Assembly (NCBI GenBank): GCA_965208325.1
Contig: OZ242326.1
Location: 3,104,001 to 3,168,000 of the forward strand
From: Candidatus Poribacteria bacterium
Lineage (GTDB): Bacteria; Poribacteria; WGA-4E; PCPOR2b
Reading direction: 5' to 3'
DNA: 64,000 nucleotides
Numbering within the stretch: position 1 is the first letter of the stretch; each line of letters opens with the position of its first letter. This document shows, one piece after another, positions 11,296-60,163 of the stretch. The position numbers and the translations under genes were made by a program. The notes under the pieces were generated by a model. The model ran no database searches, was not told the DNA's origin, and saw nothing but the letters and a program-made list of their open reading frames with translations.

Positions 11296-13764
<2,469 letters not shown>

Positions 13765-13857
13765 TCATTTGATATCTATTGATGAGCCGGGTAGGAGATT
13801 AATATTTCGAGAAGATTGTTACTTCTTTTTCGGACTCAAAGTTGGTAAAATCTGTCC

Positions 13858-14439
13858 CTATGAGGAACCGCGGCCGCGCTCAGGAGAATCAGTATCGTGA
13901 TTAGGTTGATTCTGGGAGGAGATGTAACCGGATTTCGACTGGACATCATCAATAACAGCGCGTTGGCTCTGTTTCATAAAAACACGTTTTAAGCACGCTT
14001 TCAACTCTGTATCCTCTACTTTGGCAACCTTACGATCGATTCGCTCCATAATATAAGGGGTAAGTACAACTTTTTCTAAACTATTTAGACGCTTGGAGGG
14101 CTGACGAGGTTGCATCTTTCGGGTACTAGGCTTGATAGGCTTTACAAAAAACTGCAAATCTGTCACTGCGGTTTTGCCAACAGTATGGTTGATTTTTTCA
14201 GTGACATGCTGCTTAAGTAACGAAAGCTCAGTAATCAAAACGGAATTCACCGCATAAACCGTTAACTTACCGTTAAACAGTGATATGGCTCGAGTATTGC
14301 GCGCCACAGGTTCTCCCACGGCACTATCCCAGGCAGCAAGCACTTTCGCCTCAAGTATTTTACGATCGTAACCATATTCGCGCAATAAGTATGAAAGGAT
14401 ATTTTCAATTTTATGCGTGTTGTCTGATAACTTGTCCAT
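13858..14439 (-). CDS. dciA: DUF721/DciA family helicase-loader protein
   Basis: WDSAVGEPVARNTRA...GKLTV...ELSLLK pattern; located between recF and gyrB. Confidence 0.8.
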   Translation of the reverse strand: MDKLSDNTHKIENILSYLLREYGYDRKILEAKVLAAWDSAVGEPVARNTRAISLFNGKLTVYAVNSVLITELSLLKQHVTEKINHTVGKTAVTDLQFFVKPIKPSTRKMQPRQPSKRLNSLEKVVLTPYIMERIDRKVAKVEDTELKACLKRVFMKQSQRAVIDDVQSKSGYISSQNQPNHDTDSPERGRGSS

Positions 14440-15733
14440 TTTTTATCGTTAAAATGCAGCTGTCTTCCAGAGATTCGGTCCAAACCTCCCGCCGCGTCGA
14501 AGTGATAAATGTCTGTGAATTTAATCGTTGCAGCATATCAAACAAATATGCCGAACGCATCTCATCTAGTTCCGAGATAACATCATCTAGCAATACAACT
14601 GGCGCTTTATCTGTTATTCCACGAATCAACTCTAACTCACCCAATTTTAAAGCTAAAGCAATCGTCCGTTGTTGTCCCTGTGAACAGAAGGATTTGGCAT
14701 CCTGGCGTTGCAAATATTCGCCTCTCCCTGTTTCTAGCGTCAGTTTCAAATCGTCCCGGTGGGGACCTACGGACGTCGTCCCACGGAGTATATCTTGCGA
14801 TCGAGAACAAGATAGAGCCTTTAAGTATTCATCCACGGCTTCGGATTGGCTAATGGAGTCAATACCTTCGAGAGCTTCCGGTGGTTGGTACTCCACGACA
14901 AGTGTTTCACTCCCACCGGTCAGTTCACTATGTTTTATTTGCGCATACGTACTCAACTGCCTTAGCATTTTACTTCGAGTTTGTATAATAGAAACACCAT
15001 CGTCAATGAGTAGTGAATCCCAAGCCTCTAAAAGATCGCTTCTGGCTTGATTTGCCCGAATTTGCTTCAGTAGCTCATTTCGTTGCTTGAGCGCAAACTG
15101 GTAATTTTGCAGATGGTTTAAGTACGCCGGACTGAGTTGAGATATTAGTATATCAATAAAACGTCGGCGTTCGGATGGCGCCCCTTTTACTAAAGTAAGC
15201 GATTCGGGTGAAAAGAAAACGACATTGAACTGTCCAATCCACTCGGAAAGCTTCCGTTGAAGATCTCCATTCAGCTTAAACCGCTTTTTGCCATTCGATT
15301 CGTTCGAGACTTCCAGAGTCATATTAAGCGAGTCTAGATCCTGGCTTTCGGGCTTAGACGAAGTTGAATAGCAATTACTAATGTCGGCAGATGCCTGGCA
15401 TCCTTCAATATAGCTAGATTGAACTGCCGAGTTTGAGAGCGGGGATTCGTGAATTAGATTAGAATGAGTGCCGGTGGGCTGAGTTCGTGTAGTCGCATCG
15501 CAATCAGGCGCAATCATACCTTTTAGATAAAACCAGTTCTCGTTATGCCGTATTAGCTCAACATCTGGGTAGGTGCGGTGGGATTTGGCTGTGCTAAGAA
15601 AGTAAATCGCCTCCAACAGGCTAGTTTTACCCTGTGCATTTCCGCCGACAATCAGGTTACCTTTATTCGGAAATTCAATCTCGCAATCTACATAAATCCG
15701 AAAGTTACGTAACAGAAGGTAGTTTAATCGCAT
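14411..15733 (-). CDS. recF: DNA replication/repair protein RecF
   Basis: GGNAQGKTSLLEAI, GAPSERRRFID, GPHRDDL, SQGQQR, LLDDVISELD. Confidence 0.97.
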   Translation of the reverse strand: MRLNYLLLRNFRIYVDCEIEFPNKGNLIVGGNAQGKTSLLEAIYFLSTAKSHRTYPDVELIRHNENWFYLKGMIAPDCDATTRTQPTGTHSNLIHESPLSNSAVQSSYIEGCQASADISNCYSTSSKPESQDLDSLNMTLEVSNESNGKKRFKLNGDLQRKLSEWIGQFNVVFFSPESLTLVKGAPSERRRFIDILISQLSPAYLNHLQNYQFALKQRNELLKQIRANQARSDLLEAWDSLLIDDGVSIIQTRSKMLRQLSTYAQIKHSELTGGSETLVVEYQPPEALEGIDSISQSEAVDEYLKALSCSRSQDILRGTTSVGPHRDDLKLTLETGRGEYLQRQDAKSFCSQGQQRTIALALKLGELELIRGITDKAPVVLLDDVISELDEMRSAYLFDMLQRLNSQTFITSTRREVWTESLEDSCILTIKNGQVIRQHA

Positions 15734-56619: not shown

Positions 56620-56789
56620 ACCGTATGGCTTAGAGCATGTTTTCAATGTAGATAGGAAAAACCGGTTTTTTGTCATTATGACGGTCGAAATCATTGCATT
56701 TTCAAGACATTTACTTCAAGATAGTTTCTCTCGAAGGCAGATTCGGACTGTTCAAAAGTTCAAGAGATGTTTAAGTATGAGAGGAGACG

Positions 56790-57752
56790 ATGCCAACAGG
56801 CCGCATTAAATATTTCAACCGGGACAAAGGCTTCGGATTTATCGCCCAAGACAACGGCGAAGCTGATGTTTTTTTGCACGTCTCTGCCATTAACTGGGCG
56901 GACGACGAGCTAGGCGCAGGGCAACGGGTCAAATACGAAATTACCGAGGGCAAGCGGGGGCTAGTGGCGCGAAACGTTGAGGTCCTGCTTACACAACTTG
57001 AGCAAAAGTGGCTGCGTCAAGGCAAGGCGATTATTCCGCGAGACTACCCAAGATTCGCTTCACGCGAACAAAGCGAAGCCTCCGATGGAGACAATCCGGT
57101 ATCGTTTCAAGAACCGATTCGACCAGCGTCAGTTGCATCGTCTAGTGCGCAGAAATCTGAACAATCTGGTGAACTACCACCTTCGGGGCCGGACGATGAA
57201 GCAGATGCGCTGAATCAGAATTTAGTCGCATCCGATGCTCGGACCGATTCTAGGTCCGACAAACCTGAACGCGTCTCGTTTGGCACTTTATACATGCAAA
57301 AGCAAATCCGGCTCCAAACATCAATGGTTTTTGGGTTGTACAATCACGAGCAGTGCCCTTTGACAATTAGTGAATTCACGCAATCCACGTTTACGTTGCA
57401 AGGAGAAGAAGAAAGCCGGGAAATCCCGATGACGGACGTTAAATATTGTTATAAAGCTGAAGACGCGGATGCTATGTATGCGCTCATGCATTACGATGAG
57501 GAAATTAAATCGCAAAAGTTAAAGCCGATTGACGCTCAGGCGGAATGCTACCAAATCGACACACGGGAAATTCAGCTTGCGCGCAAGGAGGAATACCCCA
57601 TTGAAGTAATTATGCGCGAGGGAGAAATTTTTCGGGGTTTGGTGGATTGGGTCAGCCCATTCGAAATTAAGATAGTTTTGGAAAACGGATCTAAAGTTGT
57701 TGTTTTCAGGCATGCCGTCTGCAAGTTTCAGGCAATTCCGTCCGAAAAATGA
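56790..57752 (+). CDS. cold-shock domain protein fused to C-terminal Hfq/Sm-like domain(s)
   Basis: Residues 1-66: CSD with KGFGFI (RNP1) and VFLH (RNP2). Residues ~259-313 align to Hfq (ARKEEYPIEV.M..G..F.G.V....PF...VVFRHAV). Confidence 0.8.
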   Translation: MPTGRIKYFNRDKGFGFIAQDNGEADVFLHVSAINWADDELGAGQRVKYEITEGKRGLVARNVEVLLTQLEQKWLRQGKAIIPRDYPRFASREQSEASDGDNPVSFQEPIRPASVASSSAQKSEQSGELPPSGPDDEADALNQNLVASDARTDSRSDKPERVSFGTLYMQKQIRLQTSMVFGLYNHEQCPLTISEFTQSTFTLQGEEESREIPMTDVKYCYKAEDADAMYALMHYDEEIKSQKLKPIDAQAECYQIDTREIQLARKEEYPIEVIMREGEIFRGLVDWVSPFEIKIVLENGSKVVVFRHAVCKFQAIPSEK

Positions 57753-57761
57753 ACGAGGGAT

Positions 57762-57967
57762 TAGGGCGTGTTGACATTTGGCATCCCTTAGGTTGAATTG
57801 AACGGTTAATCGGCGGTCCCTATCTAGTACAAAGGAATCTATTGTAACACAATCTGTTAGATTGTGATCCGAGCCCGCAAACTAACAGTTTGCGCTACTT
57901 ATATCAGATTATCCAATGGTGACAACGTTTGCCGAATCAGTAGCCTCAAAATGTCAACAGAACGTAG
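57762..57967. mobile_element. MITE-like element enclosing an inverted GTAG-REP pair
   Basis: Inverted termini TGTTGACATTT (57769-57779) / AAATGTCAACA (57949-57959); internal hairpins at 57844-57866 and 57876-57898. Confidence 0.55.
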
Positions 57968-57991
57968 AGTTTCACTGAACATCTAGAGATT

Positions 57992-58633
57992 ATGCGACCG
58001 ATAGAGATTCAGAAGGATAACGAAGACGCCAGCTCAAACTTGGTAGTGAAACAGTATCGGCATCTAATGGAAGAGGTGCATCTTGAGACTCAGCGTTTGT
58101 ACGAAGCGCGAGGCAACTTCCCGTGTCCTTCCACCTGTTATGATTGCTGCCGCAACACGGCGACGATGTTAATCAGTGAAATAGAAGGGCAAGACCTCAA
58201 GGTAGGACTTAAAAAACACCCTCCAGAGATACAGGAGCATATCCGCAAAAAAGCCGAGCGCTCCGTTCGAAAGCTTGAGCAAATCGGATTTTCCCATGAA
58301 CGGATGACGAGGGACGCTGGCATGGAATCGGTCGAAGTGTTGAAAGGGAAACCGGAGGCGGAATGCCCGATGCTTATTGGGGGAGTCTGTTCGGTTTACG
58401 AACATCGTCCATTGATTTGCCGGGTGTGGGGATATCCAATCGACAATGGGCGTGAATTGGCGTGTTGCCGCAAGACATTTATCGGTCAACGCCGACTTTA
58501 TAAACCCATTGATTACGCGCGTTACTGGGACACGTGCCGAGATTTAAGCGAAAAGATTGGAGCGGAAGAGAAAACACCTAATGCTTATCTTGTGGTTCGG
58601 TTGCTCTCTGAAGAAGGGGTGACAGAAGGGTGA
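57992..58633 (+). CDS. YkgJ family cysteine-cluster (CxxxCxxCC) protein
   Basis: CPSTCYDCC, CPML..GVCSVYEHRPLICR.WG. Confidence 0.9.
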   Translation: MRPIEIQKDNEDASSNLVVKQYRHLMEEVHLETQRLYEARGNFPCPSTCYDCCRNTATMLISEIEGQDLKVGLKKHPPEIQEHIRKKAERSVRKLEQIGFSHERMTRDAGMESVEVLKGKPEAECPMLIGGVCSVYEHRPLICRVWGYPIDNGRELACCRKTFIGQRRLYKPIDYARYWDTCRDLSEKIGAEEKTPNAYLVVRLLSEEGVTEG

Positions 58634-59100: not shown

Positions 59101-59364
59101 CTATTGCGATTGGAAATAATCCGCGTTGATTTGGGTGAAGTGTTCCCATTCTTCCGGAACATCTTCGTCCATGAAGATTGCTTCGACCGGACATTCTGGT
59201 TCACATACACCGCAATCAATACATTCTTCCGGATCGATAAAAAGCTGCTTGGCGTTTTCAAAGTCCTCTGACTGTGATGTAGGATGAATGCAGTCAACAG
59301 GGCATACGTCCACGCAGGCGGTGTCCTTGACATCAATGCACGGTTCGGTGATGACGTATGTCAT
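59101..59364 (-). CDS. fdxA: 7Fe ([3Fe-4S]+[4Fe-4S]) ferredoxin, copy 3
   Basis: [26 protein letters not shown]...CIDCGVCEPECP; AGGAGG RBS. Confidence 0.93.
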   Translation of the reverse strand: MTYVITEPCIDVKDTACVDVCPVDCIHPTSQSEDFENAKQLFIDPEECIDCGVCEPECPVEAIFMDEDVPEEWEHFTQINADYFQSQ

Positions 59365-59503
59365 AGATGATAAATCCTCCTTGTGAACTGGGTTAATTAT
59401 TTTTTTTCAGAACGTGAGCGTAATAGGGTAATCGTGCTTCTAACTCCACCTCTACTTTTGAGCGTAAATCTGTACCCGTCTGAAATTTTGTGAGCAGCTA
59501 TCG

Positions 59504-59761
59504 CTACTGGAAATAATCCGCGTTGATTTTGGTGAAGTGTTCCCATTCTTCCGGAACATCTTCGTCCATGAAGATAGCTTCGACTGGACATTCCGGCTCA
59601 CATACAGCGCAATCAATACACTCTTCGGGATCGATATAAAGCTGCTTAACGTTTTCGAAGTCCTCTTCCTGAGATGTAGGGTGAATGCAGTCAACAGGGC
59701 ATACGTCCACGCAGGCGGTGTCCTTGACATCAATGCACGGTTCGGTGATGACGTAAGTCAT
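59504..59761 (-). CDS. fdxA: 7Fe ferredoxin, copy 2
   Basis: Same pattern, CIDCAVC; AGGAGG RBS. Confidence 0.93.
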   Translation of the reverse strand: MTYVITEPCIDVKDTACVDVCPVDCIHPTSQEEDFENVKQLYIDPEECIDCAVCEPECPVEAIFMDEDVPEEWEHFTKINADYFQ

Positions 59762-59899
59762 AAATGATAATCCTCCTTGTTAACTGAATTGATGATTTTT
59801 CTTCAGACCGTGAGTGCGATAGGATAATTGTGCTTCTAACTCCACCTCTACTTTTGAGCGTAAATCTGTACCCATCTGAATTTTTGCGAGCAGCTATCA

Positions 59900-60163
59900 C
59901 TACTGGAAATAATCCGCGTTGATTTGGGTGAAGTGTGCCCATTTTTCCGGGACATCTTCGTCCATGAAGATTGCTTCGACGGGACATTCCGGTTCACACA
60001 CATTGCAATCAATACATTCTTCGGGATCGATATAAAGCTGCTTGACGTTTTCAAAGTCCTCTGCCTGAGATGTCGGGTGTGGGTAAATGCAGTCAACAGG
60101 GCATACGTCCACGCAAGCGGTGTCCTTGACATCAATGCACGGCTCAGTGATGACGTAAGTCAT
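59900..60163 (-). CDS. fdxA: 7Fe ferredoxin, copy 1
   Basis: Same pattern, CIDCNVC, 2-aa insertion (YPHP); AGGAGG RBS. Confidence 0.93.

Follow-up and report, generated by a model that had tools for sequence, protein, structure and literature searches.

The window analysed here is a 64,000-nucleotide (nt) stretch of Candidatus Poribacteria DNA, positions 3,104,001-3,168,000 of contig OZ242326.1 (assembly GCA_965208325.1), from a single-contig genome of 4.71 Mb that is 95.6% complete. At 56790..57752, on its plus strand, lies a gene that according to the open reading frame list and translation encodes 320 amino acids (aa) plus a stop codon, and in which a cold-shock domain (CSD) heads a chain that ends in two Hfq-like domains. 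Among the general RNA chaperones of bacteria, the two best known are Hfq and the cold-shock proteins, and nearly all work on either has dealt with small proteins of a single domain. From sequence and structural modelling we consider it almost certain that the product of this gene comprises a CspA-type CSD, a flexible linker of approximately 90 residues that opens with a 20-residue motif, and a rigid double-Hfq unit that arose by internal duplication. The ATG start codon is preceded, at a distance of 3 nt, by a Shine-Dalgarno-like AGGAG that can be read at 56782-56786 (plus strand). We regard this start as secure, because the open frame (323 aa) begins only three codons 5' of the ATG and because the N-terminus of the 320-aa protein aligns with those of 59 homologs. 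The full protein has 424 homologs at E ≤ 1e-3, the best 120 of which are all full-length (294-377 aa), and the close homologs carry the source name 'Candidatus Poribacteria bacterium'.

The CSD (aa 1-66; 56790..56987, plus strand) was delineated from a Pfam match, a structural model and the superposition of that model on solved structures. PF00313 spans aa 3-64 with an E value of 8.7e-21 and scores 74 bits, where the cut-off is 27. The two motifs that define a CSD, RNP1 (K-G-F-G-F-I) and RNP2 (V-F-x-H-x), are both intact, as KGFGFI at residues 13-18 and VFLHV at residues 27-31; G16, F17, F28 and H30 are invariant among distant CSD fusions. In a full-length AlphaFold2 model, prepared with a 60-sequence alignment, the domain is a five-stranded oligonucleotide/oligosaccharide-binding (OB) barrel with a predicted local distance difference test (pLDDT) score of about 90. 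This barrel superposes on solved Csp proteins that are 44-48% identical to it: VIA-align returned a Z score of 13.7 and a root mean square deviation (rmsd) of 1.2 Å over 66 residues for E. coli CspA (PDB: 1mjc) and Z 14.0 for 8xyf_B, and the CspA and CspC structures together span Z 13.7-14.0 at the same rmsd and length. Members of the CspA family (PF00313) stand alone at about 70 aa, whereas here a typical CSD, with both RNP1 and RNP2, occupies the N-terminal 66 residues of a 320-aa protein. In NCBIfam the best match is to CspE (69.2 bits, where the cut-off is 120), and the best-scoring names are antiterminator CspE types, every one of them below its cut-off. Because no equivalog cut-off for a named Csp is reached, the N-terminal part is a CSD within a larger protein and not a Csp ortholog.

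The segment that follows the CSD (aa 67-86; 56988..57047, plus strand) is modelled as a short helix (residues 69-76; pLDDT 70-84 across the segment) that leads into the motif Q-G-K-x-x-I-P-R; it is near-invariant in 60 homologs at L67, E71, Q77, G78, K79, I82, P83 and R84. This motif is confined to the closer CSD fusions (P0029, P0124, P0134 and, in part, P0133), and fusions with short linkers are without it. The remainder of the linker (aa 87-159; 57048..57266, plus strand) is poorly conserved and varies from 43 to 109 residues among the same 60 homologs, and the AlphaFold2 pLDDT falls below 50 across aa 86-159. An earlier, sequence-only reading of this DNA had proposed a CspA-type domain with intact RNP motifs at aa 1-66, followed by a disordered linker of some 90 residues, and both of these proposals are borne out. 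The net charge of the variable linker is -7 in this copy and ranges from -8 to +17 in the homologs. We considered, and dropped, the idea that this segment is an acidic autoregulatory element like the C-terminal domain of Hfq: it is net negative in 36 of the 60 homologs and positive in 20, and so the feature is not conserved.

Hfq-like domain 2 (aa 258-320; 57561..57749, plus strand) is modelled with pLDDT values of 93-96 as a helix (258-266) and five strands (271-275, 279-288, 292-297, 302-306 and 310-315). Its matches to Pfam Hfq_1 (PF21979, 21.1 bits) and Hfq (PF17209, 17.1 bits) are both below a cut-off of 27, and that to NCBIfam Hfq_rel_Cyano reaches 21.2 bits against a cut-off of 52. When aa 155-320 were compared with PDB sequences by phmmer, all nine matches at E ≤ 10 proved to be Hfq or Hfq-like, and each lay within domain 2. 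A profile built from 33 genomic copies of domain 2 was significantly similar to solved Hfq: E values were 7.9e-6 and 8.8e-6 for the Methanocaldococcus jannaschii Hfq-like protein, 6.7e-5 for Caulobacter Hfq and 1e-3 for Bacillus subtilis Hfq. At E ≤ 10, 39 of the 49 matches of this profile were to Hfq, the remainder being eight to NusA, with E values around 0.05, and a further two that are weak. In the alignments, G278 and G283 coincide with the two Sm1 glycines of solved Hfq, F291 occupies the F42 position, and F306-R307-H308-A309-V310 lies opposite the Y-K-H-A-I of Sm2; domain 1 has neither the Sm1 glycines nor the Sm2 motif. These Hfq-signature residues are the best-conserved positions among 108 modules of the wider family described below (G278 in 106, G283 in 103, H308 in 103, R307 in 88, and Tyr or Phe at 291 in 97). 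We take the aromatic residue at the F42 position, Arg in place of K56, and H57 to form the uridine-binding proximal pocket of Hfq, which domain 2 would then retain; R265 and K266 presumably belong to the equivalent of the Hfq arginine rim.

When the whole model served as the query, the CSD dominated the fold searches and accounted for 50 of 50 VIA-align rows and for Foldseek ranks 1-46. Hfq structures follow in the Foldseek list, among them 3hfo (template modelling (TM) score 0.82 on the target, rmsd 1.1 Å, 58 columns), a match that we infer from its higher identity to fall on domain 2. Since CSD structures had filled these searches, domain 1 (aa 160-222; 57267..57455, plus strand) was folded alone, with its own alignment. 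The mean pLDDT was 87.9, compared with about 90 for this domain in the full model, and the helix (164-174) and five strands (178-183, 188-196, 200-204, 209-213 and 217-222) are ordered as in domain 2. With this isolated domain, 28 of the 29 rows listed by Foldseek were Hfq, the best being 6gwk, which is 13% identical over 61 aligned columns (TM 0.89 on the target, rmsd 0.8 Å). Among 48,161 representative chains searched by VIA-align, Hfq took the top seven places (Z 10.8-11.8, rmsd 0.9-2.5 Å, 60-68 residues), the best match to bacterial Hfq having a Z of 11.8 and an rmsd of 1.0 Å; archaeal and eukaryotic Sm proteins scored 9.0 and lower, 2-3 Z units beneath bacterial Hfq. Both C-terminal domains are therefore predicted to adopt an Sm fold that comprises the Hfq-type N-terminal helix and five strands. 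The sequence-only reading had aligned residues ~259-313 with Hfq by eye, including the Sm1 glycine and an FRHA motif (the string that it quoted is aa 261-310), and had suspected a second, degenerate Sm fold at ~163-222; sequence profiles and predicted structures sustain both of these assignments.

Small SH3-like barrels are common, and the C-terminal likeness to Hfq might in principle be that of a generic small β-barrel, acting in protein-protein contacts or as a scaffold and having no nucleic-acid role. De novo designed barrels do occur among the fold matches (7ur7 at Foldseek rank 36, 7uwy at Z 8.1), and middling VIA-align Z scores are frequent. We nevertheless disfavour this explanation as very improbable: the profile match to solved Hfq brings the N-terminal helix, the Sm1 glycines and the Sm2 motif into register together, 20 of 134 relatives exceed the curated Pfam Hfq cut-off, and it is specifically bacterial Hfq that fills the highest ranks for domain 1.

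The kinship of the two domains with each other is evident when their profiles, drawn from 108 module segments that an exhaustive search had supplied, are compared by hhalign: the probability is 96.7% (E 3.4e-10), with 54 columns in register, and a global alignment gave 86.1% and 5.6e-7 over 64 columns. This signal appeared with the broad family alone, and with close homologs only the probability was 0.4%, that is, no signal. Domain 1 is tied to Hfq by sequence only through domain 2 and through one relative (P0197), which is colinear with the module (E 3e-15) and in which the residues aligned with domain 1 exceed the Pfam Hfq cut-off, at 33.5 bits. Because the model, the hhalign result, this relative and the fold matches of domain 1 all concur, we conclude that the C-terminal half is, as judged from alignments and predicted structure, an internal duplication of an Hfq-type domain, the first copy of which has lost its Sm2 motif. 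A connector of 35 residues (aa 223-257; 57456..57560, plus strand) joins the two copies; it contains two predicted helices (223-232 and 237-241), has pLDDT values of 83-94, and is itself conserved in the 108 modules (R253 in 102, P246 in 84, D236 in 81, L244 in 74). As this connector is both structured and conserved, modelling and alignment suggest that the two Hfq domains sit in a fixed arrangement.

The double-Hfq module is not restricted to this protein. An exhaustive phmmer search with aa 155-320 against 1.84 billion representatives found 161 clusters at E ≤ 1e-3, 44 of them at E ≤ 1e-10; the proteins are 48-1142 aa long, and the match generally covers both domains. These features are not due to chance, both Sm-like regions being conserved in hundreds of proteins. 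A second module gene in the same genome (G000:C1:~810,100-810,900; L001 1471..2238, minus strand) encodes a CSD-less paralog of 255 aa that carries the entire double-Hfq module, preceded by some 95 N-terminal residues of unrelated sequence; paralogs of this CSD-less type, of about 200-260 aa, are present in many related genomes. Of 134 module relatives scanned with Pfam (63 + 71), 20 exceeded the cut-off of PF17209 and 14 had a CSD at the N-terminus, which makes the CSD the commonest fusion partner found; the other partners are HTH_3, HU, S1, HEAT, the DnaJ C-terminal domain, ParB_N (below its cut-off) and GmrSD_N. Four relatives (P0162, P0170, P0186 and P0265) have three or four Hfq-like repeats per chain. 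In one of these, the 1142-aa P0186, the repeats lie behind a GmrSD_N (DUF262-type) restriction-endonuclease domain, and this domain order hints that Hfq-like arrays also serve in defence-type proteins.

The identity of some of these partners raises the prospect that the protein of this study is mainly a DNA-binding, nucleoid-associated or transcription-linked factor, which acts on single-stranded or bent DNA or in antitermination. Relatives are fused to HTH_3 (P0126, P0130, P0131, P0133 and P0237), to HU (P0252), to ParB_N (P0268) and to GmrSD_N (P0186). CSDs bind single-stranded DNA besides RNA, and Hfq also binds DNA; a solved complex of Hfq with double-stranded DNA (5uk7) is among the fold matches, and the sub-threshold NCBIfam names of the CSD are those of antiterminators. 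Against these points must be set the nature of the best-conserved residues of domain 2, which are those of the Hfq RNA pocket, the presence of S1 and CSD (binders of RNA or single strands) among the partners, with the CSD the commonest of all, and a genomic neighbourhood that offers no pointer to DNA transactions. We consider a primary role on DNA to be improbable.

To place the CSD fusions within the family, a quick maximum-likelihood tree (IQ-TREE) was derived for the 108 module segments, 15 rows of which bear a CSD. The CSD label changes seven times on this tree, at least four of them across well-supported branches; some CSD-less rows are N-terminally truncated fragments, and so losses are overcounted. 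The CSD fusions are spread over several distinct clades, and their linkers vary from none to more than 150 residues. A search for the short-linker form in species-representative genomes retained 78 loci, of which only 3, from metagenome-assembled genomes (MAGs) labelled Pseudomonadota and Deltaproteobacteria, matched it over its entire length; the other 75 have a CSD match alone.

A further profile, built from 40 mostly stand-alone members, matched 580 clusters at E ≤ 1e-3 in the database of named proteins. The best 120 of these are mostly proteins of about 192-200 aa; those labelled by organism come from MAGs of Thermodesulfobacteriota or Deltaproteobacteria, and the names are 'hypothetical protein' or the automatic 'sRNA-binding regulator protein Hfq' of the Joint Genome Institute (JGI). 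Stand-alone tandem-Hfq proteins of this kind (about 190-200 aa) carry the complete two-domain module and are 20-35% identical to the one described here, but have no CSD and no long linker. They are the true and uncharacterised family to which the C-terminal half belongs.

The main rival to an Hfq-like ring was prompted by a likeness to FljA-type repressors in the ESM Atlas. A ring-less double-Hfq protein, monomeric or dimeric, might bind mRNA, possibly in a sequence-specific manner, as a translational repressor or as a stabiliser of certain transcripts, with the CSD adding only a general affinity for single strands. The conserved and confidently modelled connector may indicate a closed two-domain unit, and the residues of the Hfq pocket are lost in domain 1. 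Moreover, the nearest clusters in the ESM Atlas are of the FljA type, annotated as 'repressor of phase-1 flagellin' (feature scores of 0.93 and 0.92), and one Atlas cluster carries both PF03614 and Hfq labels. FljA, which we take to repress fliC mRNA post-transcriptionally, is similar in size to the module (about 160-170 aa) and is its nearest neighbour by language-model features. It is termed a flagellar repressor in a passage of PMC2652032. Sequence models offer no support for kinship of FljA with the double-Hfq module: PF03614 has no match in the genome of this study at E ≤ 10, nor in any of the 134 scanned relatives (E ≤ 0.01 or 0.001), and no FljA-named protein is found among the best 120 of the 580 profile matches. 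Atlas feature scores of 0.9 or more also arise for 4-10 of every 100 shuffled proteins, and for both domains the fit to bacterial Hfq, which forms rings, exceeds that to every other Sm protein. PF03614 likewise had no match in three further genomes; its lack of a match in 401 sampled Pseudomonadota genomes is uninformative, as the controls were also blank. Membership of the FljA (Flag1_repress, PF03614) family was accordingly rejected, the likeness being confined to ESM Atlas features, and we treat FljA as a lead only. The ring-less mRNA binder is an explanation that we think rather unlikely.

The distribution of the module within the phylum is relevant to what it may replace. The module is present in 146 of 151 sampled phylum genomes (this one included), in 130 of the 131 that are of high quality, and in 19 of 22 genera, often in 2-4 copies per genome. 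It was missed in five genomes: three come from two other families and lie outside the class to which the window belongs, and two are 79-81% complete. The sequence-only reading had recommended looking for a separate canonical hfq: in the genome of this study there is no Pfam Hfq match above the cut-off, and the domain occurs only in this gene and in the CSD-less paralog. Elsewhere in the phylum, Pfam Hfq exceeds the cut-off in 47 of the 151 genomes, and 55 of the 61 such rows fall in frames of 155-1,426 aa; the remaining six, in frames of 80-128 aa, belong to G002 (two), G004, G069, G074 and G009. Two of these genomes, G002 and G004, are among the three sampled from outside the class; they are without the tandem module and have Pfam Hfq in frames of 92-135 aa, which is the size of Hfq itself. 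Within the class, nearly all Pfam Hfq matches sit inside frames of at least 155 aa. This pattern fits a replacement of small Hfq by module proteins, with the qualification that very few genomes represent the lineages outside the class. A small canonical Hfq that exceeds the Pfam cut-off is lacking from this genome and from most of the class, and the part of Hfq is therefore probably taken there by the CSD/double-Hfq protein together with the CSD-less paralog.

The architecture, conservation and modularity described above are shown by the comparisons; the mechanism that we now outline is inferred from the established properties of Hfq and Csp proteins. We hypothesize that the double-Hfq unit is a probable oligomerising, RNA-binding core. 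Oligomerisation would proceed by edge pairing of the Sm type, the simplest form being a trimer, in which six domains would complete a ring with canonical-like and degenerate domains in alternation. The sequence-only reading had likewise put forward a trimer of tandem Sm domains as a pseudo-hexamer, whose tethered CSD arms could couple RNA melting to annealing. RNA would be bound at the pockets that contain F291, R307 and H308, and by a basic rim that is partly kept (R265 and K266), and the tethered CSDs could capture, hold or melt single-stranded RNA in the vicinity of the ring. A single polypeptide would in this manner join the melting activity of Csp to the binding and annealing activities of Hfq, and may represent a new form of composite RNA chaperone. 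On this overall mechanism, a double-Hfq ring core that binds RNA while tethered CSDs hold or melt the strands, our own judgement is evenly poised.

Several observations weigh against this mechanism, and we gather them here. The ring is argued purely by analogy with Hfq. The protein does not reach any curated Hfq cut-off, in Pfam or in NCBIfam, and the profile of domain 1 found no match among PDB sequences at E ≤ 10. Domain 1 is degenerate in sequence and without the R/K-H motif of Sm2, and for that reason canonical pockets would make up at most one half of those in a ring. In domain 2, the position of Y25, which we take to be a distal-face residue of Hfq, is occupied by Ile in this protein and by Thr in 65 of the 108 family modules, and the Q8 position of Hfq is also unconserved in the family. 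The fused CSD is not the only one in the cell, since an ordinary stand-alone Csp is encoded elsewhere in the genome (a 76-aa frame). The DNA-binding and DNA-processing partners of the relatives (HTH_3, HU, ParB_N and GmrSD_N) mean that the ligand could be DNA. Three sponge metatranscriptome runs, in which 5% of the sampled words were present, left the gene uncovered, a result that is neutral with respect to expression. Finally, the two best-conserved positions of domain 1, Tyr in 97 and Lys in 101 of the 108 modules, are here S199 (57384-57386) and M214 (57429-57431). A relative that is 95% identical (L004) has Lys at 214 yet Ser at 199. A relaxation of the constraint on domain 1 within this genus may lie behind these two substitutions.

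Comparison with Hfq itself (PF17209, and the cyanobacterial-type Hfq_1, PF21979) puts the proposed ring in context. The N-terminal helix and bent five-stranded sheet of Hfq are predicted in both C-terminal domains; Hfq, however, has one domain per chain, and here there are two, the first of them degenerate, placed behind a CSD and a long linker. Should rings form, they would constitute a natural asymmetric bacterial Sm ring, with intact and degenerate pockets in alternation, as in the eukaryotic hetero-heptamers. Mixed rings of the CSD form and the CSD-less paralog are conceivable. We also put forward, tentatively and with more doubt than conviction, the wider proposal that throughout this class the Hfq hexamer has been replaced by a trimer of doubled Hfq with alternating faces, of which one paralog would carry three tethered CSDs and so combine melting with annealing, and that unrelated bacteria have repeatedly assembled or retained the same combination.

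A set of known RNA-chaperone domains is thus found in a real, uncharacterised, lineage-wide architecture, the parent family of which is also uncharacterised. The sequence-only reading, which knew of no characterised bacterial CSD-Hfq fusion, had allowed that its proposal should fall if the architecture were already described and common. Common it is, on the phylum counts given above, and precomputed Pfam labels for both CSD and Hfq are attached to 19 of the 120 homologs listed. As to a description, searches of the full-text literature, in a coverage that leaves out subscription journals and database documentation, yielded none of a CSD-Hfq fusion or of a tandem Hfq. The combination is therefore visible in databases through its labels, yet we found it unstudied. 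The sole paper that contains both 'Poribacteria' and 'Hfq' (PMC11607428) concerns, in the passages with these words, FlgV, an unrelated two-transmembrane protein. The widespread double-Hfq module, the CSD-less paralog in the same genome and the conserved 20-residue motif behind the CSD had not been foreseen. What makes the protein of wider interest is that Hfq and cold-shock domains share one chain in almost every sampled genome of an uncultured class that is mostly without canonical Hfq; if rings form, it would offer a direct test of whether a melting domain tethered to an annealing platform alters chaperone activity. The stand-alone double-Hfq proteins (580 clusters, mostly 'hypothetical') add a group of unexplored candidate RNA binders in sulfate-reducer-type and other environmental bacteria.

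The CSD/double-Hfq gene is set apart from its neighbours by 170 nt and 239 nt of intergenic DNA. On its 5' side are an acyl-CoA-synthetase-type gene and a gene for a 225-aa membrane protein; on its 3' side follow a CxxCxxCC-domain gene, a GBBH-like_N gene, three tandem ferredoxin paralogs and a gene for a DnaJ-domain membrane protein. The CxxCxxCC-domain gene, which is the next one downstream (57992-58633, plus strand; PF03692 at 22.7 bits, slightly below the cut-off of 23), is the only neighbour with conserved synteny, being found at 5 of 11 relatives' loci, one of which is from another family. The neighbourhood suggests no operon partner. A scan for promoters and terminators returned no more sites than did shuffled sequences, and none was assigned to the CSD/double-Hfq gene; an Rfam scan gave one weak match to a miRNA model (E 0.14) and nothing on regulation.

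The intergenic region directly 3' of the gene holds a repeat element at 57,816-57,990, to which the coverage by the three metatranscriptome runs was limited. In a DNA run, the summed contig depth over this element was 11,556-14,661, compared with 13.8 over the gene, and many contigs diverge on either flank. The genome itself has just two full copies, which are 96% identical, and one partial copy; with so few at home, most copies must lie in other members of the sampled community. As an RNA, the element has an unremarkable fold (z -1.18). Further downstream, at 59101-60163 on the minus strand, the three tandem ferredoxin paralogs are of the 2x[4Fe-4S] type and 85-87 aa long (Pfam Fer4 for the first of them), and their N-termini are near-identical.

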